Origin: an uncultured virus (IMG/VR IMGVR_UViG_3300034759_000219)
Lineage: Duplodnaviria; Heunggongvirae; Uroviricota; Caudoviricetes
Strand: one strand, 5' to 3'
IMG/VR virus record: IMGVR_UViG_3300034759_000219
DNA: 64,000 bases
Shown here: piece after piece, positions 11,618 to 59,939 of the stretch
Layout: the number at the start of each line of letters is the position of its first letter
How positions within the stretch are numbered: position 1 is the first letter of the stretch
Position numbers and translations under genes: made by a program
Notes under the pieces: model-generated
What the model was told of the DNA's origin: nothing
The model's database searches: none
The model's input: only the letters and a program-made list of their open reading frames with translations

Positions 11618-11656
11618 GTGACAGGCGAACTGGTGTTGTACTTAATTAACGGGCAG

Positions 11657-11663: not shown

Positions 11664-11682
11664 AAGAATATGGTGGTTGGCG

Positions 11683-17487: not shown

Positions 17488-17494
17488 ATAATAC

Positions 17495-17833
17495 ATGGCT
17501 GCAGTTGCAAAGTAGGGAGCAGCTTCTTAGTAGAAATAGCGCAATTTCTGGGTATCGCTTTTGAAAGGTACGCTTAGGTTTCTTGGCGTAGGAGATGAGT
17601 ATATACAGAAGGGCGTCAAGGGCGTATAGGGCTGGTTTGCAGGTGCAACCATCAAAAAAGGTGACAAGTTCGTATACACAGGCGCATAGGGTAAGTTATT
17701 TACAAGATACGGTGGCATAGGCTTGAGAATTGGCTAGATATATGCAGGTATCAAGTTGCCATTTTGGCTTGTAGGTCTGCCTTTTAAAGCTGGAGACGGG
17801 CTAGTCGACTACTCTAGGAGGCGTGTTGTGTGA
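17495..17833 (+). CDS. Hypothetical protein, TAG-recoded
   Basis: ATG to TGA with internal TAGs; hydrophobic C-terminal half. Confidence 0.6.
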
Positions 17834-18654
17834 ACAATGAAGAAACAAGCCAGCCAAATTTGGCATTAACTGCAGTTTCGTTGCCATTGAGATTTTTTGG
17901 ATATTTTCTAAAAGAAAAGGCATATATAAGCATATAGACAGCGCCATAGTTTGGGCTGTTTGACCAATTTAACCCACTTGGTTCACGGGGCTTAAGGCTT
18001 GCATAGTGGTCTCAAAGGCGTGCACTTGAAGCAGGAAAGCCAAGGAGCATAATTACAAGTGCAATACATGGTATAAACAGGCTTACATTTGACCCAAAAT
18101 TTTCTAAAGCTGTTTAGAACCAGATGAAGTTAAGAAAACTTGTTAAAGGCTACATCAAAGGTGGTAAAGACGTAACTAACCTGTTTGATATTGGTGTACT
18201 ACGGTTTTCAGATTAGCTTAAAAGCTATTTTAAGGTATCAGATGAGGTGCTTAAAAAAGCTACAGGCACAAATGTCATACTAAAACAATTTTTTGTAGCA
18301 CCAGCTCGCGGATTTAGAGTTTAGACATAGCCAATGTACCATATTGGAAAACTGTTTTAGTAGTATGAACTATAGAGTTTCTATGGGTTTTTAGGCCAAC
18401 TTGCGATTGGCCTTGGTACGTAGGTATATCATGGATTTAAGAACCTTGGTGTGAGGTACAAGTATCTACAGTACCAAAGACACGTGTAGTCTAACGCGAT
18501 GCGGCTTTCAACTGTAGGCAGGCAGAATGTGACGGCAGAAGAGCAGATGTACCTACAATAGTAGTTTGTCTAGCTTGGCAATGTGACAAATGAATAGTAG
18601 ATGTTGCGTGAAAACCCGTATTAGAACTATTACTATATGGGAGTGAATTCATGA
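17830..18654 (+). CDS. Hypothetical protein, TAG-recoded
   Basis: GTGA and ATGA coupling at its two ends. Confidence 0.6.
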
Positions 18655-22210: not shown

Positions 22211-22214
22211 GAGT

Positions 22215-23714
22215 ATGTAGTGTAAAGTTGTTAGAGAACGCGGTGTGGACATAAACTTCCCAGATATAATATCCGATACAGACTATGTAATTTCGCCAAT
22301 TTTAGCATAGCGAGACAGTGAAGTAGCATAGGCGTAGTAGACTATCAAGCAGTATTTTGCTGAAAACTTTCTAACCGACAATCCAGACGCAAAGGATGCA
22401 CTGTACTTTTTCAATTAGTAGGACCAGATAGTTAAATCCTAGCAATAGGCTCAAACTTAGGCAGATTGGTAGTCTGAATAGGCTTCGTATAATGTACAAA
22501 ATCCAATTTTACAAGTTACAGTGCAAGACTATTCAGGTCTTTTAACTGGCATGTACAATTAGAATAAGGAATCACCAACCTTAAACAATGTCGTGGACAC
22601 AGTAGAAAACCTTGAAGAATCACTCGCTTGGCTTATTGCATAGACTGCGTATGTAGATGAGTTTATAAGCAGGACTGTGTGCTGTATGCTCTTGTTTTCT
22701 AACAAACTCAAGCCTGAAGTCTTTTGGTATCTAAACGGACAGTAGCAAAACGAAACCGAGTTGAAACAGGAACTAACTTCACTAAAACAAGACATACAAG
22801 AAACTATAGACGTGATAAACGCATTAGACTTCTCACAACTTGCAAATATGGTAAACCTGCAACAACAAACCGACTCGCTTGAAACTACATATATGTCCGT
22901 CATGAACCAATAGTTTGCGTAGTTATTGAATAAACTCAACCAGATAATATCAACCAAGTACATGCCTGCTTTAGACAAGCTATAGTCTAAAAGCTTACTA
23001 GACCAAAACGCAACTATTACAGACATGACCAAGCTTATAAGCCAATAGTATGAGACATAGCTGAAAAACTTAAAACGCACAGATGTGTACAGCCACATGT
23101 CCAAACTTCAACGTACAGATGTCGAGAATAAGCTAAAATCCGAATTTGACGCAATACAACAGCAAGTCTGGTCTTCTTTAAGCCAAATTCGTATACCAGA
23201 TGGTACTAAGATAGGCGAAATTTGTGCGCCATTGTTTTCAAATATATCAAGCCAGCTGAACAATGTCGCATAGGGCTTCTTTGTGAATATTCTAAATTTA
23301 CTCAAGCAGTATTACTACACTGCACCTAAATTTGAAAATTAGCAACAATTGTCTGTTAAATAGTCGAATTCTATTTTGAAGAGATGTGCACAATAGCTCC
23401 AAACTGTTTAGGACAGTGTAAGTACAGACCAGCAAGGCTATGCCCAACTTTAGAGATAGTGCTTTAATCTGAATATCACGTTAGATTGGATACAAAATAC
23501 TACAAGCCAGCAAGACAGCACAAGCTCAGACCAATCTAGTGACACCACAGTGCCAAATACCGCTCGTACACTCAAATACGGCATCGTGTCGCTTGGTACT
23601 ATTGGACAGGACGTGGCAAACAAGATCACACTGTCTATGTCAGATGCGGTTAGTTCTAAGTTGCAGGGCGTTTTAAACCAACTGCGTGGGTTCTTGCCTA
23701 AAGGAGGCAGTTGA
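22215..23714 (+). CDS. Hypothetical coiled-coil protein, TAG-recoded
   Basis: Continuous frame including fragment 23085. Start is 22215 (ATG TAG) or 22245. Confidence 0.6.
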
Positions 23715-23715
23715 C

Positions 23716-25128
23716 GTGTAGTTTTGGGATATCTTCAAACGCAAGAAAGTCGAGCAAGTTGAACAAAATAACATAGATACAATGCGCCTGCTAAACCCGC
23801 CAGTTCGTGGAAAGCATACGCATATTATAGACGAGCAGTCTTTTGAAAGAACTGGCTATATAGAATTTGTGCATAAGGCTATAACAACAGATTAGATTTA
23901 GTAGCGTGTTGTAAAAAGGCTAGTTGAGATGTAGCTGTCTAATGGATTTCGCATCTTTTCTATAGACGAGAAAATAGATAATAGCGTGAGTAGGCGCTTA
24001 GATGAAATACAACTCTAGTCTGGTATGAGACTGTACCAAATCATACACGACTTGTTTTATGAATTTGTTGCATATGGTAATTAGTTCGCTGTACTTGTAA
24101 GAAACCAAGCACTTACTTCTGGCAAGAAATACAAATTTTAGGGCAATACCTTGGACCCAATAGCTGCAATTTTCAAATAGCCTACACGATTTGTATCTAT
24201 ACGCAGAAAAGCCAATGGCGACCCTATAGAATACAGGATCGCATTGAATGAATTACTGCCTTCAGACCAAGACAGAGAGCTTATAGCCAGGCGGGCTCAA
24301 TCTGCGTCTAATAATTATTAGCAAAGATTTCAGTAGAATGACGTTGTACATTTCGCTTTGAATCCAGACCCAGACCTAGGTGGGTTTGGCAGACCGATCA
24401 TATTAGAATAGCTGGATGATTTGCTCGTACTACGCAGTATGGAGACATAGCTAGATGATATGATACGCAGAGCAAAATTCTACCAAAAGTATTACATAGT
24501 TGGTTCTGAAAACATGCCTCCAAACCCAAATTCTGTGCAAGCTGTAAAAGAAAAGATAGAACAAAACGATCCAGATGAAATCATGATTGTACCATAGCCA
24601 GATAAGGTTGGTATCTAGTTTGAAGACATCATAACACCTGTTATAAACTCGATTAAAGAATTCAAAAACAGGACATATAGCGGGCTTGGTTAGTCTGGTG
24701 TGTAGATGGGTGAAGGTGGATCTGCAAATAGATAGACTGCAGAACGCGTACTTGAAGGATTCTATTAGATGTAGCGAAACTTACAAAAGATGTTCTAGTA
24801 GATCTTTGAATCGCAAATACTTTAGCAGATAGTTTTAGACTTAGGATACGATCCTTAGCAAATTGGCAACTAGTTTCCTAAACTTGTATTTGAAGACCCA
24901 GATATCGAGCGTACTATGCAGAAAAATTAGCATTATGCATTGCTATTTACACAAAACGTTATAACTGAGGACGAAATGAGATCGTACATAGGGCTTGGAC
25001 CGTTAAGTGAAGACCAGAGGTCTAAGCTATATGCAAACTTGTATGGGCAGACAAAAGTAAATATAAGTGCAAACCAAAACATAGTTCAACCTCAGAATCA
25101 GCACAAAGGAGGAGACCAAAATGGCTGA
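23716..25128 (+). CDS. Portal protein, TAG-recoded
   Basis: About 470 aa between terminase and protease: YGN*FAVLVR, DVVHF...GFGRP, *GLG*SGV*MGEGGSANR*TA, VITEDEMRSYIGLGPL. Confidence 0.8.
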
Positions 25129-26287
25129 CGGAATTTACGTCTGGATAGTAGCCAGCCATTCTGATAGGCCTATAAACAACAGAATATATAGGTCTGAAGA
25201 GATGATGCGCTAGGTTAAAACATGGACTAAGCCATACAAAAAGCCAGTCTTAAGGCACCATGACCAAACAGATGACGCAATTGGGCGGGTTGTACAGTAG
25301 ACATACGTGGACAAGTCGAGATGGAATACCGCTATACACGAGCTTGGTGTTGGAGATGAAGTGCCATTTCCAGATGATTAGACAGGTTAGCTTGTGATCA
25401 AGTAGCACATAACAGACCCAGATGCAGTACAAAAGATCAAAGATGGCAGGTATAACACTGTGAGTGTCGGCTTCTCTGCGGAACATATGTACTGCAGTAT
25501 ATGCGGTACAGATTGGTTTGAAGAACAATGCCAACATGAACAGGGAAAGGAATATGACGGAGTTGTATAGTATGGTATTCCAACTGGAATTATATACAAC
25601 GAAGTCTCGTTTGTTAACGTACCAGCTGATGACCATGCAATTGTAGCAAAGCAGATAAACAGCGATGGAGAAAGCGTGATTATATCGAATACTTCCTTTC
25701 GCTACATGTACGTCGATTGTTAGAAAACTGTTAGTCAAGTTACAGAAAGCAATGCTAACAGCGCCGTACATAGTAACCAGCATGATTAGGAGGTTAAAAG
25801 TATGGCTGACGAAACCAAAGAAAAGGAGTATGAAGCGCTTGTAAACTAGTACAAGGAGCTGCAAGAAAAATACGACTCTATGATAAACTCCGTAAAAGCC
25901 AGTATTGTAGACGCCATAATCGATGCAAAGCAGCAACTTGGGCATGAGTATTCAGATGAGCAAAAACAGAGCTTACGTGAAAAGTACTAGGCTATGTCTC
26001 TGGATGTACTGAACGCTATATACGATGAGCTAACAGACGAATGCGAGTTCATAGGTAAGTTTATCTCAGATTCAGCTGCACAAACAGAACAAAATAGTAA
26101 CTGCGACTGTAAGCAAGAGCAAACACAACAAACCAATCCAGAGCCAATACAGGACAAAGAACCAGATCCAAAGGTAGCAGAAAATCCTGTCGGCTTCATA
26201 AACAAAGTTGGAGAGGTTAAGGAAACTCAACTGGATTAGTTACAGTACGTCAAAAGGATATTAAGAATCGGAGGGGATATTAAATGA
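25121..26287 (+). CDS. Prohead protease / scaffold, TAG-recoded
   Basis: WTKPYKKPVLRHHD...AIGRV...KIKDGRYNTVSVGF...CSICG...EVSFVNVPAD. An in-frame internal RBS and ATG at 25802 suggests a nested scaffold protein. Confidence 0.85.
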
Positions 26288-27036
26288 TCGCAAAGTACAA
26301 AGCGCTGAAAAGGCCAATGCGCGTATTTGCAGAAGGAAAGGTTATAGGTGGCGGAATCAATCTTAAACCAGCTCCATACCTGCCAATTGTTGAAGTTACA
26401 CCAGATACACAACCAGTCGTTATAAAGAAAGGTACATTTGTAACACTTGATTAGAATGGCTTCGTTATACCAGCATATCCTTCTCAAAAATAGCTTACAT
26501 ACTCAGCTGTTGATGTACAATTTGGCGTTATAAACATCGACACTGGCGAACCAGTTCAAGCAGCTGGTACATCTACCTAGACGATCTCTGGCAAACCAAT
26601 AGGAATCGCATTGTATGACTATTTTCTAAACCTGCCTTAGTTCCAAGCAGATTACAACATTCAGCCTGAAGTTGGTATATTAACCGAAGGCTTGATCTTA
26701 CTCGCACTTGACAGTGCTCATTCAAGTGTCCAATACAAACCAGGCGATGTACTAGAACTCGACTCTGCAGGTTTCCCAGTCCCAGTTGCATAGCTTAATG
26801 TGACAGTTGACGAATCTGGAAGTGCCACACATGAAATCAAACTTGATGCGTCTAATTTTGTCGGTAAGCTTGTCAGAGTAATCGATGCCACAGATTAGTC
26901 ACTTGGCTGGACTGGCGGGTATGAACTTGTCGCACCAGCATCTGGCTTAGACCTGCCTGGTATTGAAAATGGCGGTATACTTGATGGCATAGACGAGACC
27001 ACAAAGAAAGGCTTACTAATCAAGCTCGGCTTCTGA
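26284..27036 (+). CDS. Probable head decoration / structural protein, TAG-recoded
   Basis: Lies between protease and capsid; open with TAGs; ends in TGA. Confidence 0.6.
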
Positions 27037-27050
27037 TGGGAGGGTCATTG

Positions 27051-28265
27051 ATGATTAACATACCTGAACTCGAAAAGATGGTTGAATACACAGTAGAAAA
27101 GATTTTGTACTCTGAAAATGCAGATTTCCTGCCTTTGCAGAAGGACAAGATCAAGGAATCACTATAGCGAGACAGCAAGCTCAAACTCTTAAAACAAGTT
27201 ATGAACAACAATGGCTACGTAGACAGATACTCTGCAAATTCTGCAGAAGATGCAGGTAGAATTGAGCTGAAAGACTTGGTTACATCGCCAGAATTCAAAG
27301 TACTGTTTCCAAAGGTTATAACAGACCTCGCACTTGAGACACTTGAACCAGCTTTGGTCTTGCAGAATATGCTTGAAACTATACAGTTCAAAGGCTCAGT
27401 TGCAACAATACCTGTCTTCTCAGGCTTTGGTGGCAACCTTGATATCCCAGAAGGCGGAGAACCACCTGTATTCAATGTAAAAGTTGGTGCATTCGAACAA
27501 GTAGTCATCGGCAAATCTGGTGTCATGGTTGAACTTACAGAAGAGACAATCAGATACAGCGCATATGACATCTTCAATATCCACGTTAAAGAAGCACTTA
27601 AGGCACTTGCAAGATGGAAAGAATACAAAGTTGCTAAGATGATCACAGGCAATGCAAGTGAAGAAATCGACGGTGGTACCGGAAAAGACATTTCTGGTGC
27701 AGACAATGGCGGTCTTACATTGTTTGACATCATGGAAGCAGCCACAAAGCTTATAAACAAAGGCTTCAATCCAGACGTCATAATCATGAACCCACTTGCA
27801 TATCCAGTCTTTATGTATAATGGTACACTCACAGCTATGTTCTATGCATTCGGTCAAGGCTCACTTGCAAACTGGCCTGCTCTTGCAAAGATAGCTAATG
27901 CTGAATTCTACAATAAAGTCGCTGGCAATAACATATCTGGCATCTCACTACCAGCTGGCGTATTTGGTAAAGGGCTCAGTATAGTACTGTCTCCATTCAT
28001 GCCATTCACACCAGCAAGTGACCAGACACCAGCTAAGACTGACATAATAGTAGCCGACTCGTCCGCACTTGGTTACCTTGTTGTAGACCAACTGCCAACA
28101 ACAGATGAGTTTGCAGATCCAATTAGAGAAATCAGGAAATTTAAGATTGTAGAAAGGTATTCAGTTGTACCTAAAGCAAAAGGTGCAGGTATCGCAAAGA
28201 TCAAGAACGTCAATGTTGTGAAGACATTCGATCCAATTCCATTCTACCAGATTCAACCACAATGA
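27051..28265 (+). CDS. Major capsid protein (404 aa) with a single TAG at codon 39
   Basis: RBS GGGAGGG before TTG/ATG 27048/27051, in frame with track ORF 27201. One TAG at 27165-27167. Capsid-like motifs IPEGGE and DVIIMNP. Confidence 0.85.
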
Positions 28266-31730: not shown

Positions 31731-31934
31731 GTGCCAATAGGCAGGTATGAGTGCAAAAACTGTGGGACTGTGCAAGAGGTACTTGCCAGCAAGCTCGAGC
31801 CTAGCATAGTATGCTAGAAATGTGGTGGAATAGCAAAGAAGATGCCCCCGTCTCGAGTGGCGATCAAGTTTGTTGGTGGCGGATTCTACAGTACAGACAA
31901 CAAGTCCAAGGGTGGCGATAAAGGTGAAAAATGA
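31731..31934 (+). CDS. FmdB-family zinc-ribbon protein, TAG-recoded
   Basis: MPIGRYECKNCG...C*KCGG...IKFVGGGFYSTD. Confidence 0.8.
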
Positions 31935-32412
31935 GCTTGAACACATAGTGAAGGAACAACACAAGCAATTTTGTGACGAATTTAGTATAACCGACTTTCC
32001 AAAACTGTACCATGTACTGGCAATGATTGAAACTGAGTCTTAGTGGAATTAGACCGCTGATTCAGGCTTTTAGCGTGGGCTGATGCAAGTGTCTGAATAG
32101 GCACTCAAGACGGTTAACCAAATATACAAGACCAAACTTTCTTATGATGATATGTTTGATCCCGCGAAAAATGTATTTGTAGGTATAAGATACATGCGCT
32201 GGCTATACAGATACTTTGCGGTTACAAAAGCATTTCCTGCCGAGATATAGATACCATTGACTATCATGTCCTACAATTGGGGGATTGGCAATATAGTCAA
32301 ATGGGTATATGAAACCAAAAAGTCTAATAGTTTCATAGATGAATAGATACCAGATGAGACTAAGTAGCACTTGCTAGATTGGATCTTCTGGTAGAGCATA
32401 CACCAAAAATGA
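31924..32412 (+). CDS. Lytic transglycosylase (SLT), probable endolysin, TAG-recoded
   Basis: AMIETES*WN*TADSGF*RGLMQ...FDPAKNVFVGIRY...SYNWGIG...IPDETK. Confidence 0.88.
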
Positions 32413-33895: not shown

Positions 33896-33926
33896 ATACA
33901 CCACTCCAGCACAACCTTGACTAACA

Positions 33927-33950
33927 ACAAAAAGGGTCCAAAAGGACCCT
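33927..33950 (-). terminator. Intrinsic terminator after the suppressor tRNA
   Basis: AGGGTCC-TTTT-GGACCCT followed by a T-run on the minus strand. Confidence 0.75.
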
Positions 33951-33954
33951 CGGC

Positions 33955-34030
33955 TGGTGGAGCGGATGGGATTTGAACCCACAACCCACGATTTTAGAGA
34001 CCGTCGCTCTCCCGCTTGAGCTACCGCCCC
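33955..34030 (-). tRNA. Amber-decoding tRNA-Ala(CUA)
   Basis: GGGGCGG TA GCTC AAGCGGGA GAGC G ACGGT CTCTAAA ATCGT GGGTT GTGGG TTCAAAT CCCAT CCGCTCC ACCA. 76 nt, anticodon CTA (33995-33997), G3:U70 (34028/33961), A73, encoded CCA. Confidence 0.96.
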
Positions 34031-34129
34031 ACGCTTGTTTTCACCATGCTTTCACCTCCTGTCGCTTCAAAGACTAACACCGCTATAAACACTTAAATTG
34101 GCTTGGTTAGTCGCATCTGAGGTGGTTTG

Positions 34130-35290
34130 GTGAAGCTACTAGACACTTCTGCGTTCATTGCTAATGAGTTTGAAGATCTTTCCAATTGTGTTACTACTTA
34201 CCATGTAATTGAAGAATTAGACAGGCTGAAAGAAGTGAAAAGGGTAGCACGCAGGTAGAGACATGCTATTAACAAGATAATTGAATCTGGTATGTACATA
34301 ATACAAAACAATTAGGCATGCGCAGACGATTCGCTGATTACTTAGTAGAGCACAAACACCGAGTTTGAAATAGTCACGTAGGATTCAGCTCTATACCTTA
34401 GGTAGAAAGCGCTCGGTTTGAACTAGACATTAGTACACGAAACATTACCAAATTGGCTATTTGACCCAATTCCAACGATAGAAGTCCAAGAGAATTTATC
34501 TGGCAAGTCGATGCCTATGCAATATGAAAGTGAACTTGAAGGCAAATATGTGTTACTTACAAACTGCGGCTAGTCGCGTATTGCAGTTTTAAGGGAGCAA
34601 AAAGCACACTTTGTGAACCCAAAGTCATTTTCAATTGGCGATACTAAGATTCAATAGCTAGACCTACAGCAGAAGATACTTCAGGCGTAGATTGAAGATG
34701 CTAGCATAGAGCTCGTAACATAGATTGGCACTGCAGGCTGTGGCAAAACATTTCTGTAGCTTTAGGTCTAGGCAAAGCTTGTTATGGAAGGCAAGTACAG
34801 TAATATACTGGTTTAGGTCCCACCAGTTCAACTTGGTGGTACTGACAGGTATGGATTTCTGCCAGGTACAATTGAAGAAAAGACAATCCAGCAGATGTCT
34901 GGTATCGTTGACAACATACATGTTATATTTGGACCTGCAGAAGGCGCAAGAATGGTACGCGAATAGATGGGCTCACAGACGTCGATTATACAATTGCAGT
35001 AGTTTTCCAATATACGCGGCAGATCGCTCAATAACACAATTGTAATCGTAGATGAATAGCAAAATATGTCTGTCCTAGAAGCAAAGGCATTTCTAACTAG
35101 GATAGGCGAAAACTCGAAGATAATACTCTTAGGTGACATAGAGCAGATAGACACAGGCATGAATGGCATAGAAACAAACGGCTTAATTTAGACGTAGATT
35201 TAGTTTAAGACAGAAAAGATGTAGCAACACGTATGTCTCAAAAAGTGTTACAGGAGCGATATCTAGCGCGTATAGGCTGAGAAGCTTTGA
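34130..35290 (+). CDS. phoH: PhoH-family PIN + ATPase protein, TAG-recoded
   Basis: LLDTS...VIEELD...*RHA...ADD...LR*KALG...GTAGCGKTFL*L*V*...GFLPG..EEK...IRGRS...DE*QN...LTRIGENSKIILLGD..QID. Confidence 0.92.
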
Positions 35291-35331
35291 AATACGTATT
35301 TTTTCTGTTAGTCCTGTCAGAGGTGCATTGT

Positions 35332-36462
35332 ATGATTATTCAAACAGTACAGCCGTCGGATGGTAGCAATAACGTTGCGGTTAATACTGTTATAACAATA
35401 CAGTTTTCTATACAGATACCGGAAGACCAGATTCTCACAAGGTTCATAACACTCTTAAAAGGCTAGACACCTGTGCAAACAACTATACAGAAAAACGGCT
35501 AGACTGTGTTTGTCACTCCTGCACAACTTGAACCGAGTACAGAGTATACACTGTACGTCTATAACCGCAATGTAATAACCAAAGAATACCTCAGAGGTTA
35601 GGACGGTACGACACTTGACAAGACGTACGTTGTGAAATTCACTACAGGTACGGAATAGTCTGACACACCATAGTACGAAACGCCAATATTTTCCACTCCA
35701 ATAACTATTACCACCAATGCAGTGTTAACAGATGCTGGTGAGTTTGTCTTATACACTGAGAATCCAAGCATAATACTCACATTTTCAGATGAGCCAATAA
35801 ATTGTTCTGCTACATAGACCATGGAAACATTAGATGGCAACATAACACAGCTTCAACCTGCAGTACAGTTTATGAACAACACGTTAGCAGTGAATATCAC
35901 CGGTGTAGTGCCTAATTAGCTTATAACGATAGTACTAAGAAACATACAGTTTAAACATTCTGCTACTACACCAGAACTTGTAGTCTACAAATACACATGG
36001 CTCAAGCCGTCATTTGGTACTCTGCACAGTATACGCATAAACTTTGGCAGATTCGCAAATTATTTGAAAGACTACGAGCTTGTTGGAAATATACTCAAGT
36101 AGTAGCAAATGTATGAAAAAATGACTGGCGCAGTTATACTCAATAGCGATTAGATATCCTCAGATTAGAAACATGCAATTTTGTTACTTGCCAAGTATGC
36201 TGTGCTTGAGGATATGCTATTAGAAAAAGGCTACAAAGAGCGCGACTCTGTTACTTATACTGACATGACCGTCACGTTTGGTACACTGAACTCAGACTTA
36301 CTCGATTACCTGAAAGGCCAGAAGGAAGAGTTAGAACGAGAGTTGGCTCAAAACAAACTCAGCCCAGACTTTGCAACTTAGGGCTTATTATCCGAAAACT
36401 GGGTTAAGTCTGTACGAAGTGCAGATTATAAAAAAGGCGGGTCTGCAAGATGGAGACTATAA
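35332..36462 (+). CDS. Ig-like domain / head-tail adaptor-like protein, TAG-recoded
   Basis: N-terminal P.DG..NV.VNT.I.IQFS Ig-like pattern; continuous frame to TAA. Confidence 0.6.
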
Positions 36463-36869
36463 ACCTGCTTGAAGGCATAGATACACTGCTGAAAAAATTC
36501 GGCAGGCTTATAATATACAGGAAGGTAATTGACGGAAATGTATTTGACAGAGTAATCGAGGTATGTCTTACTGTACGTACCAGGCTTCAAGGTAGGATAG
36601 AGCCATATGAAGTTATGATACCTGGTATATCAGACAAAACAGGATACCAGATCTTAATAGAAGCTAAACACGGTTTTGTACCTTCAATAGATGACTTGGT
36701 ATTTATTCCTAAATGCGATGGCAAGGTTATAACGAACCCGCCTGTAATCTTAGATTATTTACGTGTTACGAACGTCAGTGATATATTCTACCAAAGCGCA
36801 ACTATTGCGTACAATGTATATTGTGTAAGAGAAGAGCGGCTTAGGGGTGTATTCAGTGGAAAAAGTTGA
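36450..36869 (+). CDS. Putative head-closure protein
   Basis: 139 aa, located in the neck module, no TAG. Confidence 0.5.
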   Translation: METINLLEGIDTLLKKFGRLIIYRKVIDGNVFDRVIEVCLTVRTRLQGRIEPYEVMIPGISDKTGYQILIEAKHGFVPSIDDLVFIPKCDGKVITNPPVILDYLRVTNVSDIFYQSATIAYNVYCVREERLRGVFSGKS

Positions 36870-37446
36870 AAACATATCAGTACGGAAATTACTTCAAACT
36901 ATCTAGGCGCAATTCACTGAGTATATGTAGTAGCAATAGGATAAGATACCTATAATATTCAAGCCGGTTACGCCAAGTGAATCTATCCAGGACATAGGCA
37001 AACTGGTTGTTATCACCTACAGGTTATTAAGAAGAGAACCTGCTTCAATGCAAGGTAAGCCATTCACAGGCGATAAATTTTACACACCCCGTCCTACCGC
37101 AACTGTCGCAACAGACCCTGCTGTTATTGCAAATGACGTACTAATGCACATACATGAGAACATAGTTGAATTCACGTTCGTATCCGACTCATACAGCAAA
37201 GCGTCCGAATAGAGCGATTACTTTGAAGATTTCATGTAGCTTAACAGGAATGTACTTAGAAAAAACGGCTATCCTGAGATAATATTCTGGGAACGGCCGC
37301 AAGATTCAAGTGAAGAAATAAACGGTAAGGTTGTGTACTACATCTTCCAACGGTACTATGTGCGCACCAAGCGGTTAGTTGTAAGTACAGAGGATGTTAT
37401 AAGAAGAATCGAGCTCAAATTGAATGAGCTTAAGACTGGAGGTTGA
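36856..37446 (+). CDS. Putative tail-completion protein, TAG-recoded
   Basis: Directly upstream of the sheath gene; open to TGA. Confidence 0.55.
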
Positions 37447-37450
37447 TTAG

Positions 37451-39103
37451 ATGGTAAAGTATCCAAACTTGCCTGGCATTACTACTTATATAATTGATGG
37501 TGGAGCTAACGTAGAAGTAGACGAAACAATACCTAAATAGGTTGTACTTGGCACAGTTTAGGCTGACAGCTTTTAGGATGGTACACCAATTTTGTTCAAT
37601 GAGCCATATCTTGTACCAACCACACAAGCTTTGACATCGTTATTTGCAAGTTCGCCATTGGCTAACACACTTACCGTACTCGCATCTGGCTCTGGTAGCT
37701 AGTTGTTACCTGTTGGAGTGAGAATAGGATATCCAGAGATTAAATTTGGTGTGCACAATGCAACTGACATAGTATGGTAGACTGGCGATAATGTAGTTAC
37801 AAACGTGGCGTTCAATAACACAACTTAGGTACAAAACGTCGCTGGTTTAAATGTCGAAGGACCATACACTGGCAGGTTCAATGGCACATTGTTTGTCAAA
37901 ATTGAGACGAACCAAAACGATGTAGAAAGCATGGATGGAGTCAAGTACAGTGTCTCATTTGATGGTGGGCAGACATACGATACACAGTATACTAATCTAG
38001 ACGCAACAGTTCAAACTACTATAAAAGAGACAGGCTTGACCATTTCATTTGCGCCAAATTAGACTGGTACAGAGCTCACAGCTGGAATGGTATACAAGAT
38101 AGCTGTACAGTATGCAAGACTGCCACAGAATAAGGAAGAAATGTACAAGGCATTAACTGAAGCTTATAAATAGCTTGAAGGCTTAGATTAGGCGGTTGTT
38201 GTGCCATAGGATGTACATATAGACGATGTTGTGAATAAGACATCTGTTTCCGTCTCAAGTGATGATCCAGATTAGCAATAGGAAAAGATAAACTTCGGAT
38301 ACCAACTTGCAAGGTTCTGCTACAATACAAGTACAAACTTCAGGAGCTGTGTAGGCTTTATAGGTGTAAACGAGCCAGATTCGTTTGGGTTTGTAGACCT
38401 AAAAGCATGGGCAAACAAATTACTTACACTTGACGGATACAAAGATGGATTCTTCGCAACACAAGATGGTACCATGACAGGCTAGCCAATTGTAGATTAG
38501 CAAGGTTCACCTGTAGATATAGGTAAGCACCTTGTGGTAGTTGCAGGACATGGTACAATACCCGCATTCACAAAGCGCATAAACCTTGCACCTTATGTAG
38601 CTGGATATGTGTTCACACTGTCTGAAGAAGTCGGGCCAACTTACCTTGAGTTACCAAAAGCTACACTGTCCTATAAAGTACCATTTGAAATTGCAGATAA
38701 ACTTGCCGCATAGAGAATTACACCGCTTGCTACAGAGTTCACATCTGCAGGCCAAAAGACAATAATCGTGGTTGGTAGGACCTAGGCAATGCCTTCATCC
38801 AGTTTTACAAAGATCAGTACAGTACGCGTCTAGAACGAAGTTATGCAAGGCTTAAGAGAAATTGCAAAGAACTACTTAGGCAAGCCAAATAGCTTTGTAA
38901 ACAGAGAGGTCATGAGAACTGAAATGCAAAATTATCTCAACTAGCTTGCATCCCAAGGAAAATTTGCATCTTAGACTGTATAGGTCTCAACAGGTGGCAT
39001 TGGAGGCTCGTTAGGTACAGTCAATGTTGATGTGTACATAAGAGCATATGTTGAGATCCATGACGTTGTAATCAATGCAGTTTTTGAATTTGTTGCAGCA
39101 TGA
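37451..39103 (+). CDS. Tail sheath protein, TAG-recoded
   Basis: YPNLPGI N-terminus; ISTVRV*NEV...YLGKPN C-terminal sheath pattern; 550 aa. Confidence 0.85.
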
Positions 39104-39120
39104 CGAAGGGGGTTTTCTGA

Positions 39121-39723
39121 ATGGCAGAAATTGACTACACAAGATATTCATAGATAAGTGGTACAGATGTACAGATCATAATAGACGGGATTGTAATAGG
39201 CGAAGCAGCTGGAATAACTGTGTCTTAGACAAGACGAAAACTGCCAGTTTACACCTTTGGTACAGTAGATCCTAGAGGATACGGCAGAGGCGTTAGAAGT
39301 GTGTCTGGTGTACTGGACTTTGTCTCGCTTAACGGTTAGCTTATAGACAAAGTGCTCAAAGAAAAAGGATTTGAGATGTACGTTCCTGAGACAAGAGCAG
39401 ATTATGCAACTATAGTTGGGCTCAGACAACCTGGTACCCGAGTTGAAATTTAGGGTGCAGAAGAAGCTAGATTTGAAAAGGTTTCTGTATGGTATGCAGA
39501 TGAATTACCTCCATTAGACTGGATAGTTGTTGGTATGAACGAATATGGCAAGAAAGCAATGATGAAACTCTATGGTGTGGAATTTCTCAATAGCGATTGG
39601 GCAATAAGCTTAGATGACGTATCCAGTGCAGAACGCTTGGTATTTGTTGCAAGAACATACCAGCCTTGGATGATAATTGAAGACAACACTGGTACTTCAA
39701 CTGGTGGCGGAACTATCGTATAA
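39121..39723 (+). CDS. Tail tube-like protein 1, TAG-recoded
   Basis: MAEIDYTRYS*ISGTDV...KLPVYTFGTVDPRGYGRG...YADELPP...GMNEYGKKA. Confidence 0.75.
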
Positions 39724-39764
39724 TGCGTGGTGGCGCAAGCCACCCGCTTTAAGGAGTGAATGAT

Positions 39765-40415
39765 ATGTAGAACATAGACTATACAAAGTATTCATCTATC
39801 TCCGCGACAGATATACAGCTTGTCATGAACGGCGTCATAATAGGTAGCGTACAGAATCTAACATACTCAGAGCAAAGGCAAAAGGTACCAATATATACAT
39901 TTGGATCTACAGATCCACGCTAGTTTTTGCGTGGCAACAGGATAGTTAACGGCCGAATTGGCGGTGTATAGCTCGTACCAGATTCGTTCATAGAAGCTAT
40001 TGCAAAGACTATATCCGACTTCATGTCTGGCAAAGAGAGCGCAGGTATTGTACTATTTCCACGAGATAAGTACCTATACTAGGACAGGGATGCTATAGTC
40101 GCAAAGTACATAAACATAGCCAGAAAGCTTGGTCTTCCAACAAGTGGCGAATACTGGCGCACATATAACTTAGACACAGGTATGATAACCGTACAGTACG
40201 ACAAAACTGTACCGATCTTTCTAAATGAACTCCCACCATTTGACATGTTAATTTAGGGTATGAACGAATACGGTAAGAAGGCAACAAAGTGGATTTATGG
40301 CTGTGAAATAACAGATGAAGGTATCTCAATAGACATGTCAGGTACTACTTAGGTCTTAGAAAGCTTGTAGTTTATCGCCAGAACATCCAGTCCATGGTAG
40401 GAGGTAACTGATTGA
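39765..40415 (+). CDS. Tail tube-like protein 2 (paralog of protein 1), TAG-recoded
   Basis: M*NIDYTKYSSISATDI...KVPIYTFGSTDPR*FLRG...NELPPFD...GMNEYGKKA. Confidence 0.75.
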
Positions 40416-41074
40416 GCACAACAGGCTCAATATTTGTTACATAGTCAGATGCGGCGGTGTATATCGTATATGACCTACCTGCAGGCTAGCAGCGTCTTAA
40501 AGGTATAATCCCACTTGATACGCTGCTTACGTTATCTGCACAGACAGACATGGAGACCAGACCTGTATTATAGCTTGGTGTACCGTATTAGACTGGATAT
40601 ACAACAGGTAGCATGGTCTAGGCTGGATAGATGGCATTTCCAGCATCTATAGACTCGCCATTTCAAAAATACATTGAGCTTGTAAAACAGTAGGAACAGC
40701 TTGAAGGTGAACCGCTAAGGAACAGGTATATGAGTGGTCCTTCAGAGTGGTATGGCGAAGAATTCCTGCCTTAGTTTTCACTTCTTGTAGCCTACATACC
40801 AGAAATTACCAAAACAACCAATAACACCGTGGATATATCGTACATATTCATACCTGGTGTCAAGATAACACAGCGTTCTGAAGAATAGACACCTGAAAAT
40901 GTGACTATTATCCTGTACAGGTTCTAGTAGCTTGGCATGTTTAGGTATAAACAAACCGTGAGTGTTGCAAATAAGCAGATAGACTTGGACGTATCTAAAC
41001 TTGTACAATTTAAGCCATATGGCGAATACTTTGATATGTACAACACGCTTATCAAGGTGGTAAAAGGTGAGTGA
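40412..41074 (+). CDS. Tail structural protein, TAG-recoded
   Basis: Continuous frame to TGA. Confidence 0.55.
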
Positions 41075-41525
41075 ATAGCTGTACTATTCTGGCGCTGACG
41101 TGCTTGTCATAATAGGTGACATGGTTCTGTCTGGCTTGTCCTACATACAGATAGTTCCATAGCAACCGGTTATACCTGTGTACTCGGTATTTTCTCAAAG
41201 ACCGAGCGTCATGCTAACTGGCAAGAGCTCAGTACGAGGCACAATCGCATTCAATATGCAATTTTCATAGCCGTTTGAACATATGACTGTATCGCACCCT
41301 AAACTTGTGTATAAACATGGCGACGACATCTATTTTGTGTCTAAAATTGATGTTATAGTCAAAAATGAGAGCCAACAGCCTTTTATACCGCAAATCTATC
41401 TAAATGGAGTGTACATAACTGGTGGTACAGTCAATGCTATACAAGACGGTAATCCATTGCAGGACGTATATACATTTACAGCTTTAAGCATGGACCGGTA
41501 TGATAAGATTGTCACTCGGAGGTGA
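41067..41525 (+). CDS. Tube-fold-like structural protein, TAG-recoded
   Basis: YYSGADVLVII...IPVYS...VRGTIAFN...YTFTA. Start is approximate. Confidence 0.55.
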
Positions 41526-41989
41526 CGGTTGTGGAAGAGCAGAAACAGCCAGACAGAGAACTAGTTGAAAACATAAAGACAGCACTCAAATCTGGTATAG
41601 CAGATGTAAATGTTAATGCTGTAAATTTGGAAGATTTTACAAGTGCACTTAAGACAGCTACACTTGAAGTATTGAAAGAAACTGTACCTGACTTCGAGAT
41701 GACCGTACGCAAGTACATAGAACAATATCCTGACGCGTGGCTTGTAGCTGAAGACCAGAAGCAGTTTTATATTGTAAGACCGCTATCTAGGCTAGAATTG
41801 AAAAAACTGTCTAAAAGTGCCGCGACAGATGAAGACTTGGCAGATTTGGTGATTTCCACATGTGTAGTTTATCCTAAGATGGACGTTGAGAAGATCTTGA
41901 ATCTCAAAGCTGGTACAGCTAAGAATCTGCTTGATACTATAATGACAATTTCAAACTTCAACGGTGCTATGCCGGTGGTTAAGCTGTGA
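41522..41989 (+). CDS. Putative tail assembly chaperone
   Basis: YIVRPLSRLE...CVVYP...LKAGT...IMTISNF. Confidence 0.6.
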   Translation: MTVVEEQKQPDRELVENIKTALKSGIADVNVNAVNLEDFTSALKTATLEVLKETVPDFEMTVRKYIEQYPDAWLVAEDQKQFYIVRPLSRLELKKLSKSAATDEDLADLVISTCVVYPKMDVEKILNLKAGTAKNLLDTIMTISNFNGAMPVVKL

Positions 41990-42480
41990 TGGACTTAGTT
42001 AAGTTACTTAAGCTCAAGGCACAATATGGCGATGTCTATGTAGTAGATACTCCGTCTGGCATGGTAGCTTGCAGATAGCCTACAATAGGCGAGTTGTGTT
42101 AGCTTGAAGAAATATAGGAATCCAAGAAGCTATCTGAGACGGACCAATGCAAGTTGATATAGAAATAGACGCTCATAGAAGGTGAGCCGACAGATCAATA
42201 CCTACTCGCGCTCGGAGAGCAGATACTTATGGACCAGCCGACAGATGAAAACGAATACAATGCGCTATGTGCAGAACGGCTTGACAACTAGAATGTCCAC
42301 GAACAGGTCATGATCTACTTAGCTGCAAATCTCAATTTAGACGTAGCAAAGATTAAGCAATTGGATATGAAAACTGTATGTCTGCTGTTTGGACTTACAA
42401 AAAAGATAGAATATGCCATACAAGAAACACAGGATCACAATCCTACACAGCGATATACTGTGAGACCAAGAGTTGAGTAA
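41989..42480 (+). CDS. Putative tail chaperone 2, TAG-recoded
   Basis: LKAQYGDVYVV...CR*PTIGE; ends in TAA. Confidence 0.55.
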
Positions 42481-42481
42481 C

Positions 42482-42823
42482 ATGGAAGAGTATAAGGATC
42501 TAATAGCCATTGCACAAAAGTTCGGTCCTTACCAATTTGTAATTATATAGTTATAGCTTGTGAATGTAATAACCGCATTGAGCTGTTTCAAGCACATAAA
42601 CAAGTTATCTGAATAGTTTACACAAATTATACAGAATATCTTAAAGTAGATGCAAGACATATAGTACAAGTACGACTGTATGTTGAAAATACTACAAGAA
42701 ACCAAAAAGAGTGGTGGTGTGGATGATTCTACTTGTGATAATACTTTAGGTAATGACAACCGTAATGTTAGTCTAGCTCATGAGGATAAGAAACGCAGTA
42801 AACATGATAGACAGGGTAAATAA
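42482..42823 (+). CDS. Holin-like membrane protein, TAG-recoded
   Basis: FGPYQFVII*L*LVNVITALS transmembrane segment followed by a coiled coil. Confidence 0.45.
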
Positions 42824-42879
42824 GCAGTTTACAAGCTATATCAAGGGGTATGTTGTAAAGTACAAGGAGGTAAATCGAC

Positions 42880-43116
42880 ATGTCTGACGCTTGGAATCCT
42901 CCAGCTTAGGGGTCAAAAGAACGTGAAGAGATGCCATCTCATGCATTTTTACTGCCTAGTGAAAGAAAATTTCCATATAAAAAGAAAGTGAACGGACAAT
43001 GGCAGATATCCTGTGAAGGGCTTAAGTAGGCGATAACTCGCGCATAGCAACATGGGTATAAGTCAGTTGAGGCAAGAGCAAGGTAGTTATACAACAGACA
43101 CTGCAAAAAGGACTGA
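42880..43116 (+). CDS. Small phage protein, TAG-recoded
   Basis: REEMPSHAFLLPSERKFPY...LK*AITRA*QHG...ARAR*LY; AGGAGG RBS. Confidence 0.7.
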
Positions 43117-43123
43117 GCTTTAA

Positions 43124-44455
43124 GTGCCAGACTCGTTCTCAATAGTAACAGCATCTACAGCGTACTAGGTCTTAGGATATATAAGAGACTCAGGCTCGTC
43201 TTTCAATGTAAGCAAAGAGCCTTTGTATGTTGTGAAGTACTCAGCACAGTTCCCAAATGGGGCTGTGCTGGTTAAAAATACAGATTGGAGCTATTAGAAC
43301 AATACGGTAACATTAACACAATAGCTTCAAACTGGCGAAACTGTAATAGCTACAGACAATTTAAACACAGTACTCCAGTTTGATACGACACAAGCTGGTA
43401 GCATCTACATAGACACGTCTAAGATTGCTGAAGAAAGCAGGACAAAACTTGTACGAGCTGAGCTAGTATAGAGCGATACAGCTAATTTCTTTGAAGATGC
43501 GAAAGTGACTGTAAACAGTTCATACACAGGCTAGCCTTCAAGTCAATCTGTATTGGTTGCACCGGATGTTGGCGGTCAACCTGGACAGTTTTCAAATGTT
43601 GCCAGCATCGGCAGGGTCCTTCCAGGCGAAAGAACATTTTTCTGGATAAAACAAAGTGTGCAGTATGAATAGCAGGTGCAGACTGGTGTATACAACATGC
43701 TCAACGTAGAATATGTACCAATTCAACCAATTGTACAGAGTATGTACATGTAGAACCCCGGAATATACTAGCTCGAAGCACCATTTTACGCTCCAAATTG
43801 CTTGATATTCTCGTGCGCGAAGTTCGGGTCTGGCATTTCAAAGACCAACCAAATGTGGTTCACTGGCTTCTCGTACGTAGTTGACTATGGAAATGCACAC
43901 AGCTATGTCTTTGTAAAAAAGAATGTGACTTACCCATGCATATTCAACTTTATGTTTGTACCAACAAGGCCAGCACAATTTTTGAATAGATAGGACAGGA
44001 TACAGACAACACCAGTGTCGTCTGTTGTAAATGCATTTTCCACATCTGACGGGTTTTAGCTGAAATTCGCAGTGGCCTCATACGCAATTCCGTACAACGT
44101 GCTTACAAGTGTTTTCCCTGGAAACTATATAGACACGTTCTCACAGTACGTGCTCAATAATAGTTTTACTAACGTGTCTCTATACACATATGGTGGGATC
44201 TTTCAACCACCGTTGTATACTAAATTCAACACGTACTAGGTAACGATAACAAATTCATATACGGCAATTAACATTTCAGATGCCGTGCTTGGTATATGTT
44301 CTACTTCAACAGACGGCAGCTATACTGTCCGTTCGTCTCCAGTCTTGATACAGATAGGCACACAGTACATGCCTGATGTGTATTCTCAAAATACATCGTA
44401 CACTTTCAATGTGCATTTTATGTACGTTAACGTTCAAAATGGAACCATTGTATAA
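43124..44455 (+). CDS. Tail-associated structural protein, TAG-recoded
   Basis: Continuous frame including fragment 43802; ends in TAA. Confidence 0.6.
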
Positions 44456-44471
44456 AGACGTTGGTGATAAG

Positions 44472-46526
44472 ATGCCATATAAAAAAGAACAGTTTCTTCC
44501 AGGCGACCTTATACGTTCTGAGTGGGCAAATAAGATAGAAGACGAACTGCTAAGCAAGTCAAGCTTCATTGGAAGCTTTCCTACATACCTTGACTTGCCA
44601 AATTCTTTGCTGCTTGAAGACGGATCGTGGTAGGTAGTACAAGACGAAAAGACGATATATGTTGTTAAAGACAAACAATGGCAGAAGAAGCAAATTAGCA
44701 TAGAACTTCAAGGCGATATAGTAGGTACTGGTATTGAACATAACAATGCAGTTATACTAAATACCACGTAGGTCGTCGCACAGAACCTGGTCAAGTCCGT
44801 ACAGATAACTGGCGACGTACAAGGCACAAGTATAGTTGAAAATGGCGTAGCTACTGTCTATACGGCCATCCCAAACAAGATCAATTCCATTCAACTCACA
44901 GGCGAGGTAAATGGCTTTGCCCAAATTACGAGCCCTGATGTCGTCATACAGACAAGTACGAACATCGGCAATGTAGTTAAAACTGACGGATCTGTACCGG
45001 AAGCACTATCTGGATATGAAACACAAAGACCAGAACCTGGCAAGCAAGGCAGAATATATGTATAGCATGATACGAGGACTATATACTACGACACAGGTAC
45101 GGATTGGAAAGCAATAGCGTACTAGCCTGGTTATATAACCGTACAATACACACCGCCATCTGGCCAGCTCACTATAAGTGGCGTTTTTTACTTGTACACA
45201 GAAAAAGATGGTAACACGTACAAGGTTCATGTACTGAATTCAACAAGTAACGATGTCGAATCCTAGATTGTTACGGTGCCTGTAGACGTGCTTGAAATAA
45301 CAAGCACAAGCGAATCATTGAGGATAGGATTCGGATACCCATATTACATAGAATAGCATGGTTCAAACAGGGATATACTTGGAAATGTACTAATGTTTAG
45401 AGTACCACTTATACCAGCAAATAGCGAGATTACAATTCCAATTGAAAAAGTACCTGGGTTTAGCCCAGATAAGGATGCTTTCTTTTTCAACACTGAATAG
45501 CCTTTATTTCAACGCAATTCTGCTGCATTCGACCTGTCTAAGATTATTCAAACTAGAAATTTCAACAGCTGCGTGCAGTTGGTTACGAATCATAAACCAA
45601 GGTATATATCGAATTACGTAATTATAGAAAAAGGCACCACTAACCTTCTGTATCCAGAGTACGCAAAGTGTATATCACTGCTTTCTAATGTATAGCACCC
45701 AAACGTATTTTCGTTGAACACCTTAAGTGCAGTGTCACTAGCAATAGATAAACCTTACCCAGGTCACCTGTCAATTAGCGTTGGGGCTAATAACTATTCG
45801 ATTATTCAGCCTGCAGGATACAAAGCCACGGCATTAAACATCCCAAATAGTTCGGCTATTCCGTATTTTACGTCGACAATAGGCAGTAACTCAACGTTTT
45901 AGTTGCCACAAATTGAGCAGGGCGACCTGTCAACAACATGGGTTCCAGCTGGATTCGTTAGAGAGCCAGAGTCGCTTCAGATACCAAATATTGCAAGCAG
46001 TTTGCCATAGACAGGGTGGAGCATAGAATGGCTTATTGCACCGAGGGCCAGCACACCATATTAGCCTATTATCGTAGTTGGCACGCAACTAAATTATATA
46101 TAGCTGTTTTCGTCCACAGATAGCTCATATGTATACATTAAGGTTCGAACTGTTAAAAACGGCGTTCTGTCCGAGACAACAAATGTAAAAGTGTCTGCAA
46201 GTTTGAGCAGTTAGCCTGCATTTTCTGGATGTTATATGAAACTGTCCGCGTATCAGAACGGTGTTGTAAAAGCAACTCTTGCGTATGGCTCATACTCAAA
46301 CACAGTAACTACAAGCTTTACCTAGCCCCCATCGCTATCTGGTAACCTGTACATCTGCTATAATCCATTTTTCTCTGACGCACAAGGTTCAATATTGTTT
46401 AAAAACCTCATGATTACTAACAACCCAGACCATAATTAGCTATAGAACTAGTGGTAGATTGACTCATCCGTGCTGTACTTCGTGCCATTTGAAGGTCACA
46501 CCTTGCCTACCGTCGTGAGAATCTGA
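44472..46526 (+). CDS. Tail fibre / receptor-binding protein, TAG-recoded
   Basis: Repeated LxGDVxG units, RPEPGKQGRIYV*HDT, IIEKGTTNLL, PQIEQGDLSTTW. Confidence 0.7.
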
Positions 46527-46542
46527 AGTTAGTCCATCTTTG

Positions 46543-51837: not shown

Positions 51838-51841
51838 TACC

Positions 51842-54334: not shown

Positions 54335-54350
54335 TGGTTAGTCTCTGTTG

Positions 54351-59935: not shown

Positions 59936-59939
59936 GCAT

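Follow-up and report, generated by a model that had tools for sequence, protein, structure and literature searches.

A tRNA(CUA) with an alanine-type acceptor end and the probable reading of TAG as alanine in an uncultured contractile-tailed phage

Which amino acid does a phage insert at TAG if it carries its own tRNA with a CUA anticodon, and which synthetase charges that tRNA? The question is raised by a 76-nt tRNA(CUA) gene with an encoded CCA on the minus strand (34030..33955) of IMGVR_UViG_3300034759_000219, an IMG/VR record of an uncultured virus of the Caudoviricetes, from which a stretch of 64,000 nt was analysed (hereafter: the window). The window belongs to a contractile-tailed phage, in which Pfam families of the large terminase (TerL), capsid, SLT transglycosylase, PhoH, tail sheath and baseplate J were recognized. 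We propose, with a probability of roughly 0.8, that this gene encodes a natural amber suppressor derived from tRNA-Ala, which would turn TAG into an alanine codon by means of the alanyl-tRNA synthetase (AlaRS) of the host. The proposal builds on the following computed observations: the tRNA and its features, the sense-codon role of TAG, the superior fit of alanine at TAG, and the link, seen over many contigs, between CUA tRNAs of the G3:U70 type and TAG-dense genes.

The gene was detected by ARAGORN and by the tRNA model of Rfam (RF00005), which it matches with 63.8 bits (E 1.6e-11; gathering score 29) over model positions 1-71 of 71, i.e. as a full-length cloverleaf. The sequence-only reading of this DNA had described, at positions 33955-34030, a complete cloverleaf with a CUA anticodon, an acceptor stem GGGGCGG/CCGCUCC with G3:U70, the discriminator A73, and a terminator belonging to the tRNA; all of this is borne out, with the gene on the minus strand. 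According to the ARAGORN drawing and the sequence, the acceptor stem comprises the pairs G1:C72, G2:C71, G3:U70, G4:C69, C5:G68, G6:C67 and G7:C66, and A73 is followed by the encoded CCA. The anticodon (cta in the gene) lies in the loop CUCUAAA, the D-loop has 8 nt with G18 G19 G20, and the variable region has 5 nt. Directly 3' of the tRNA and on the same strand lies an intrinsic terminator-like hairpin with a T-run (33922..33951, minus), whose stem (33951..33932; 8 pairs, 5 of them G-C, with a loop of 4) starts 3 nt past the CCA and is followed by TTTGTTGTTA. ARAGORN labels the gene 'tRNA-Pyl' because of the CUA anticodon alone. Pyrrolysine tRNAs have a short D-loop without G18G19 and a 3-nt variable loop; this identity was rejected on account of the canonical 8-nt D-loop with G18 G19, the 5-nt variable region and the finding of no Pyl-related Pfam family in the 47 open reading frames (ORFs) of the window that were scanned.

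AlaRS does not need the anticodon to recognize its tRNA. The sequence-only reading had taken G3:U70 as the feature that AlaRS recognizes, and the available part of a review (PMC9976931) indeed names it as the major, evolutionarily conserved determinant, and describes G1:C72, G2:C71 and A73 as conserved throughout the known tRNA-Ala species other than those of animal mitochondria. The window tRNA has all of these. Minor identity elements of the E. coli tRNA-Ala are G4:C69 and G20; the former is found in the window tRNA and in 22 of the 24 members of the family described below, in which G18 G19 G20 are invariant. The presence of G3:U70 is more than chance, as in a set of 107 unique tRNAs from unrelated loci this pair occurs in 5/5 tRNA-Ala, 2/8 CUA tRNAs and only 1/94 other sense tRNAs. 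Among 120 tRNAs compared, the closest to the window tRNA are the CUA tRNAs of the Aeromonas phage AhSzw-1 (L070) and of the contig L074 (62/76 each), while the closest tRNA for a sense codon is the tRNA-Ala(UGC) of L074, which shares 59/76 positions and has the same T-arm and acceptor end; the sole tRNA-Gln in the set is identical at 44/76 positions. The mean identity over the 5 Ala tRNAs is not the top isoacceptor mean, so the result that the nearest sense-codon tRNA is an alanine one rests on a single close relative. A blastn search with the tRNA against E. coli genomes returned only matches to unannotated DNA with E~2.

TAG is used as a sense codon throughout the late genes of the window. 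The number of ORFs of 100 aa or more rises from 41 under code 11 to 119 if TAG is read through; the read-through ORFs of 1624, 1765 and 1802 aa carry 87, 94 and 89 TAG codons, respectively. In 34 ORFs of the plus strand TAG occurs 699 times (4.49%) and is the commonest codon, and the stop codons of these ORFs are TGA in 28 cases, TAA in 6 and TAG in none. As in other stop-codon-recoded phages, reading through TAG restores long ORFs in conserved genes, and a cognate tRNA(CUA) is encoded. The two genes used for testing the identity of the residue are the PhoH-like ATPase (34127..35290, plus; PF02562), which is divergent from the tRNA and contains 24 in-frame TAG codons, and TerL (18651..20324, plus; PF03237), which contains 22.

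The residue represented by TAG was assessed by Codetta-like column log-odds on PhoH, the main test gene, and TerL, for which 150 representatives were taken from a full HMMER scan; the rows P0002-P0012, P0128 and P0155 (13 in all), being suspected or close, were left out. Over 46/46 TAG sites of both genes alanine scores +8.3, followed by serine (-36.3), threonine (-36.7) and valine (-51.7), and each gene separately favors alanine (PhoH: A +6.1, Q -45.1; TerL: A +2.5, S -5.8, Q -20.2). In a control where each real amino acid in turn was masked as X and realigned, 19/20 were recovered, the exception being Met, which was called Leu; masked true Ala produced the profile A>S>T, as seen at TAG, and masked Gln was called Gln, therefore the method would have detected TAG=Gln. 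In the 108 distant homologs pooled, the 24 PhoH sites are occupied by A 791, K 210, L 180, I 155, C 146 and T 134 times, with Q at 46, and nearly pure alanine is found at several sites, such as the 'DEAQN' position of Walker-B (A in 95) and sites 380 and 383. The Pfam PhoH model likewise prefers alanine in place of TAG (140.5 bits) over S (130.6), T (129.2), V (128.9), C (127.8), neutral X (124.8), Q (122.2) and K (121.6). The hallmark of table 15, TAG opposite Gln in standard-code homologs, was found neither in the log-odds of PhoH and TerL nor with the Pfam PhoH model. Across 54 ORFs, alanine encoded by GCN is the amino acid most negatively correlated with the use of TAG (rho -0.31, p 0.024), with glutamine at +0.18. 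The acceptor end of the tRNA (G3:U70 and A73) and the protein evidence (PhoH, TerL, Pfam and the cross-contig comparison below) thus agree on one amino acid, as the sequence-only reading had maintained. The database copy of the window PhoH protein (P0001) has Q at every TAG and was therefore translated with table 15; its closest homologs, P0002-P0012, show Q at 25-61% of the TAG sites, and are probably recoded relatives translated in the same way.

The association between this type of tRNA and recoding extends beyond the window. Three collections were scanned with an acceptor-free pattern, in which only the D-arm and the CUA loop were fixed, yielding 91 loci with 53 unique CUA tRNAs, of which 23 have G3:U70 and A73, all 23 starting with GGG(G). 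When only loci with a length of 4 kb or more are considered, ORFs dense in TAG (8 or more TAG codons, making up at least 1.5% of codons) are present in 25/36 loci of the G:U class, compared to 0/16 loci with other CUA tRNAs and 0/5 loci without a CUA tRNA (Fisher p 1e-7, for loci that are related rather than independent); 6 of the 11 G:U-class loci without a TAG-dense ORF belong to the putative TAA-reading lineage of 24%-GC contigs discussed below. In an alignment of the 24-member family 99.4% of the cells are paired, and compensatory changes occur in 12/21 pairs, a level reached by 0/500 shuffles; the pairs 1:72, 2:71 and 3:70 and A73 are invariant in 24/24 members, whereas the pairs from 4:69 to 7:66 swap freely. 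With columns 3 and 70 and the anticodon ignored, the nearest neighbor is a G:U-bearing tRNA for 24/24 family members, while for the 30 other CUA tRNAs it is a CUA tRNA without the G:U pair in 27 cases, a G:U member in 2 and a tRNA-Phe in 1. Homologous ORFs of different recoded contigs, compared at no more than 40% identity, show, opposite TAG, A 49.3, S 32.9, K 19.8, N 18.8, L 17.3 and Q 13.5, with alanine as the best fit by log-likelihood (lnL), ahead of S (-11.4), K (-74) and Q (-93.7); alanine is also best in the stratum of 40-60% identity. One of the TerL-related IMG/VR loci (L052) has a CUA tRNA of a different kind, with a long variable arm, a GGAAG... acceptor and a serine-type look, and could possibly encode a TAG=Ser suppressor, judging from these features. 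Two short contigs (L158 and L161) from a metagenome-assembled genome labelled Phocaeicola sp. carry a tRNA identical to the CUA tRNA of AhSzw-1, and are probably mis-binned phage DNA.

The nearest annotated relatives of the window tRNA (81.6% over 76 nt) are found in cultured Aeromonas phages, namely AhSzq-1, AhSzw-1, Akh-2, vB_AdhS_TS3 and AhP_Mru1, where they are labelled tRNA-TERM, tRNA-Pyl or tRNA-OTHER. These phages of the genus Shenzhenvirus resemble the window phage in having a tRNA(CUA) with G3:U70 and A73, TAG-dense genes with alanine as the best fit, and no detected AlaRS, although they are unrelated T5-like siphoviruses (Demerecviridae) and their tRNA(CUA) is placed in a 30-tRNA array, beside tRNA-Ala(UGC). 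The acceptor stem of the Akh-2 tRNA, GGGGAUG/CAUCUCC, keeps G3:U70 and A73, and its pairs 5:68 and 6:67 differ by compensatory changes. In AhSzw-1 some genes are rich in TAG (37 in one of 736 codons, 16 and 15 in two helicases), and those for the DNA polymerase and the origin-binding protein contain none. At 50 TAG sites compared with five standard-code T5-like phages, the counts are A 50, S 24, E 16, C 15 ... Q 4, and under an empirical substitution matrix alanine is again best (S -5.1 and Q -12.5 lnL), being selected in 837 of 1000 bootstraps, as opposed to 131 for serine and 9 for glutamine. AlaRS and RF-1 domains were searched for in the AhSzw-1 record, rated 100% complete, and none was found, with positive controls in 14/14 and 10/14 genomes, respectively; therefore, the host AlaRS is the sole candidate in this phage. 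The available part of Cook et al. 2024 assigns MG676224, MG676225 and MK318083 to table 15 with no test of the residue (PMC11210395), and the paper on Akh-2 mentions neither stop codons nor suppressors. In the region of AhSzw-1 that we inspected (L075, NC_047950.1 30000-60800) TAG-rich and TAG-free genes are interspersed. The RefSeq record has 141 features annotated in 115.7 kb, and its annotation is fragmented: the ribonucleotide reductase alpha gene is split into 3 coding sequences, the NAD-ligase gene into 2 and the replicative helicase gene into 2.

The mechanism we envisage starts from a derivative of tRNA-Ala that would have acquired the CUA anticodon and kept the features of the acceptor end read by AlaRS, above all G3:U70 and A73. 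As AlaRS is indifferent to the anticodon, the host enzyme is expected to charge this tRNA with alanine, which the ribosome would then place at UAG. The late genes would be written in a TAG=Ala code, and a block of presumably early genes is open in the standard code, partly with TAG as terminator. The tRNA would have to be expressed ahead of the late genes, and the competition of release factor 1 (RF1) at TAG would have to be removed by some further step.

Several observations weigh against this proposal. On the side of the residue, the gap between alanine and serine is only ~8 units for TerL alone, and serine is only 5.1 lnL behind in AhSzw-1; the SLT domain (31747..32412, plus; 10 in-frame TAG codons) does not discriminate (S 60.7, K 60.4 and A 60.1 bits); site 359 of PhoH is Lys in 100/108 distant and 11/11 close homologs; and translation of TAG as Ala raises alanine to 10.4% in the late genes, compared to 6.9% in low-TAG genes. 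In the cross-contig stratum of 60-85% identity the best fit is Thr or Gln (Q 13.3, T 12.5, A 2.0), which we attribute, without proof, to single-step changes between TAG and CAG and to wrong-frame ORFs that align in similar DNA. The invariance of the 3:70 pair is partly circular, because the family was chosen by that pair. With respect to expression, a search for sigma-70-like promoters in 33300-34500 found 0, with 2.9 expected by chance, and the only RNA run, the metatranscriptome X20 (0.05 of sampled words), has no coverage of the tRNA(CUA). It contains a 184-nt piece identical to positions 35333-35516 in a late gene, for which DNA carry-over is possible, and a 33-nt match with 3 mismatches to the T-arm of a different tRNA. 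The window is moreover a part of a phage genome rather than the whole, and in the 47 ORFs scanned no domains of aminoacyl-tRNA synthetases, RF2, RF1 antagonists or release factors were found. Finally, for the ORF with 94 TAG codons a half-yield requires ~99.3% read-through per codon, and 95% would give a yield of 0.8%; a suppressor tRNA in competition with active RF1 would hardly attain this, so that RF1 must also be removed, inhibited or outcompeted.

This arithmetic bears on the alternative that fares best, according to which alanine is charged by an AlaRS encoded by the phage itself, or with the help of other phage factors encoded outside the 64-kb window, the tRNA gene alone being insufficient. 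We consider it unlikely, even though the window is a genome fragment, 94 TAG codons per ORF call for additional factors against RF1, and there are recoded phages with a synthetase and a release factor of their own, as stated in the available part of the preprint by Borges et al. (10.1101/2021.08.26.457843). Against it stand the scanned ORFs of the window, in which no synthetase or release factor domain was found, and the complete genome of AhSzw-1, which has neither an AlaRS nor an RF-1 domain. The proposition of the sequence-only reading that one gene may install the new code without a phage synthetase can be upheld in its second part, as far as the scanned ORFs and AhSzw-1 are concerned, while the first part is probably incomplete, as a single gene is unlikely to suffice for 94 codons. 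A 134-aa ORF with 3 TAG codons and a HEWLH motif (33006-33410, minus), which lies on the strand of the tRNA and ~520 nt downstream of it, shows a weak match, below the cut-off, to the putative metallopeptidase family DUF6782 (E 0.0015); PADLOC returned no match for this ORF or for an 801-aa ORF, and any action of the HExxH protein against RF1 is pure speculation.

Decoding could also be mixed, with mostly alanine inserted and some of the tRNA mischarged, e.g. with Lys or Gln, the synthetases of which read U35, so that the TAG sites would be statistically heterogeneous. In E. coli, partial mischarging by the glutaminyl- or lysyl-tRNA synthetases (GlnRS and LysRS) affects many amber suppressors, and lysine is the second residue at the TAG sites of PhoH as well as the nearly exclusive one at site 359. 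This possibility appears quite improbable, as lysine is far below alanine both in the likelihood tests and with the Pfam model, and site 359 is a single site that forms no pattern; mischarging of a few per cent is below the reach of sequence data.

Serine, as the meaning of TAG, is the runner-up throughout, from the column log-odds and the Pfam PhoH model to AhSzw-1 and the cross-contig set, and is nominally the best residue for the SLT domain. However, Ala and Ser interchange often, so that serine is expected as the runner-up if the true residue is Ala, in agreement with the profile of masked Ala. Bacterial seryl-tRNA synthetase requires a long extra arm, whereas the tRNA(CUA) has a variable region of 5 nt, and the Ser tRNAs compared all possess the long arm and A3:U70, which makes TAG=Ser very improbable. 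Least probable of all is TAG=Gln (table 15), with charging by GlnRS via U35: in its favor are the P0001 translation, the table 15 designation of Shenzhenvirus and the prevalence of Gln as the commonest sense residue opposite TAG in relatives of 60-85% identity, but glutamine is strongly disfavored in PhoH, TerL and the diverged cross-contig set, scores below the neutral X with the Pfam model, would rise to ~10% in the late genes, and is at odds with a tRNA that matches the sole tRNA-Gln compared at only 44/76 positions and whose G1:C72, G3:U70 and A73 do not conform to the GlnRS identity set.

The alanine-charged suppressor that we favor has partial counterparts in known systems. Among these are code 15 phages with their own tRNA(CUA), i.e. 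the crAss-like, Lak, Garnet/Topaz and phAss-1 groups (Borges et al., 10.1101/2021.08.26.457843; Peters et al., PMC9523058; PMC10607447), which share with the window phage TAG-dense late or structural genes, a block of standard-code genes and a standard-code setting. In those phages TAG stands for Gln, whereas here the tRNA is of the Ala type and Ala the fitting residue, and the TAG load of the window phage is very heavy (4.5% of codons, the commonest codon). The mechanism itself has an analogy in engineered suppressors: in experiments from 1988 (refs 11 and 12 of PMC9976931), E. coli tRNA-Ala amber suppressors and transplants of G3:U70, combining CUA with this pair, reportedly led to insertion of alanine at UAG by the host AlaRS. 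The mechanism is the same as proposed here, but the engineered suppressors served single amber sites with partial efficiency, whereas the window contains a natural gene facing up to 94 sites per ORF. Finally, the available part of Zihala and Elias 2019 (PMC6821328) describes UAG=Ala in the mitochondria of the green algae Hydrodictyaceae and Neochloris, where the codon and the amino acid are the same and an Ala-type tRNA(CUA) is nearest to tRNA-Ala(UGC). However, these mitochondria have their own reduced translation system with a changed release factor, whereas the virus must impose its code on a host that keeps RF1.

In the phage literature, the accessible part of the Borges et al. preprint (10.1101/2021.08.26.457843) names only TAG>Gln and TGA>Trp where the phage code differs from that of the host, and a survey of jumbo phages (PMC13037316) and the phAss-1 paper (PMC10607447), in their available parts, treat TAG as Gln. 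Our literature search, which did not extend to the supplements of the preprint with their possible per-clade residue calls, found no report of TAG=Ala in a phage. TAG=Ala would thus add an assignment to phage codes that are described, in the literature searched, as comprising only TAG=Gln and TGA=Trp or Gly. On balance we lean towards the view that suppressor tRNAs of the Ala type are a widespread and unrecognized route of code change in phages, where a CUA anticodon would have led to TAG=Ala in many unrelated lineages (the window myovirus, the T5-like Aeromonas phages and ~20 further tRNA variants from metagenomes), all mistranslated as Gln, and a UUA anticodon to TAA=Ala as well, with TGA as the sole stop. 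As AlaRS is blind to the anticodon, a copy of tRNA-Ala could capture any stop codon. It is tantalizing to consider this as the simplest imaginable mechanism of a code change, in which an identity mark of one base pair is read regardless of the anticodon and no phage synthetase is needed. In practical terms, public translations with table 15, such as P0001, would contain a wrong residue at ~1 in 22 positions, to the detriment of homology searches, structure prediction and proteomics. Since a sister tRNA exists in cultured Aeromonas phages, the claim is open to bench tests without delay, and how RF1 is silenced becomes an approachable question. Natural, highly efficient amber and ochre suppressors of the Ala type would also be of direct interest for the engineering of suppressor tRNAs.

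The lineage of metagenome contigs with 24% GC (L082, L087, L095, L111, L126, L130, L137, L149 and L155) carries 1 CUA tRNA and 1-3 UUA tRNAs per contig, all with G3:U70 and A73. A TerL-like ORF of L149 (L149:6031-7902, minus) contains 60 TAA, 9 TAG and 0 GCN codons among its 624 codons and ends with TGA. Compared with 33 homologs, its TAA sites score A -6.8, Q -19.6 and S -36.5 (49/60 sites usable, with the two closest, Q-rich rows kept in), and 16/17 testable residues were recovered in the corresponding control. The same ORF masked at TAA and TAG matched no Pfam family, and a comparison with local TerL sets gave one weak match. With a synthetase blind to the anticodon, Ala is expected at both TAA and TAG, and it is possible, judging from these sequences, that the 24%-GC contigs use a code with TAA+TAG=Ala and TGA as the sole stop. 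If true, this would be the first case of a phage with a reassigned TAA.

Returning to the window, the TAG-coded genes form two late blocks on the plus strand. The first (11677..28265) comprises a large protein with 87 TAG codons, the terminase and the capsid, with TAG at 2-7% of codons except in the major capsid gene (27036-28265, plus), where a single TAG occurs among 409 codons and Ala encoded by GCN makes up 8.6%; it seems that the most highly expressed protein avoids the recoded codon. The second (34127..63925) comprises PhoH, an Ig-like protein, the sheath and baseplate J, as well as three proteins (830-1802 aa) that contain 45-94 TAG codons each, and all its stops are TGA or TAA. A block of ORFs (3563..11686) that encodes RNase H, Macro and proteins without assignment is open in the standard code, as are some short genes close to the tRNA. 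Three ORFs of the block (4625-5074, 5086-7491 and 10670-11056, minus) have TAG as their stop and a further one (TAA or TGA) 10, 5 and 13 codons later; they would fit an early phase in which TAG still terminates, and would lengthen slightly once TAG is suppressed. After in-frame TAG codons of the late ORFs the next base is C in 27% of cases, compared to 17% after all codons and 16% after GCN, and G is depleted (21% vs 29%).

Close relatives of the phage were sought by several searches: a megablast search with 10 kb against 50,697 phage records gave no match, tblastn with TerL found 64 phage records, all at less than 60% identity (best 30-33%), and in IMG/VR a TerL search returned nothing with a single protein and 64 loci at 25-36% identity with an alignment. 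In metagenomes of digesters and mixed cultures, from at least three further studies, the phage itself was found with 0.83-0.92 of sampled words. Strain contigs from X5 and X10 differ from the window by 7 substitutions and 1 insertion in 3 kb, none of them within the tRNA, at this low level of divergence.

Among the minor features is another tRNA, Ser(GCU) (3278-3369, minus; 58.5 bits), which has a long variable arm and adjoins a TAG-containing ORF (2132-3205; 9 TAG codons). A CRISPR-like array at 1452-1763 has five direct repeats of 30 nt (GTTTCAATCGAACC...GGAAAC) spaced by 65-67 nt, for which Rfam returned no CRISPR family at its gathering threshold. About 800 nt from it, an ORF running off the window (3-644, minus) encodes a retron-type reverse transcriptase (Pfam RVT_1; PADLOC RT_II-A 150 bits and RT_III-A 144 bits), and the neighboring ORF 641-1234 matched no family in a Pfam scan and nothing in PADLOC. 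A LAGLIDADG homing endonuclease gene adjoins a 96-aa N-terminal fragment of a ParA/MinD-like ATPase (30050-30490 and 30741-31031, minus), and the ATPase gene may have been disrupted. In base composition, the standard-code part (1-11600) has a GC content of 0.45 and a CpG rho of 1.28, and the TAG-rich blocks have 0.40 and 0.71-0.72, so that two parts with different dinucleotide signatures coexist in one contig. GpC is strongly depleted in the Ala-type suppressor lineages of L074 (rho 0.33) and L149 (0.18), and shows no depletion in the window (1.25), AhSzw-1 (1.04) and L088 (1.10).

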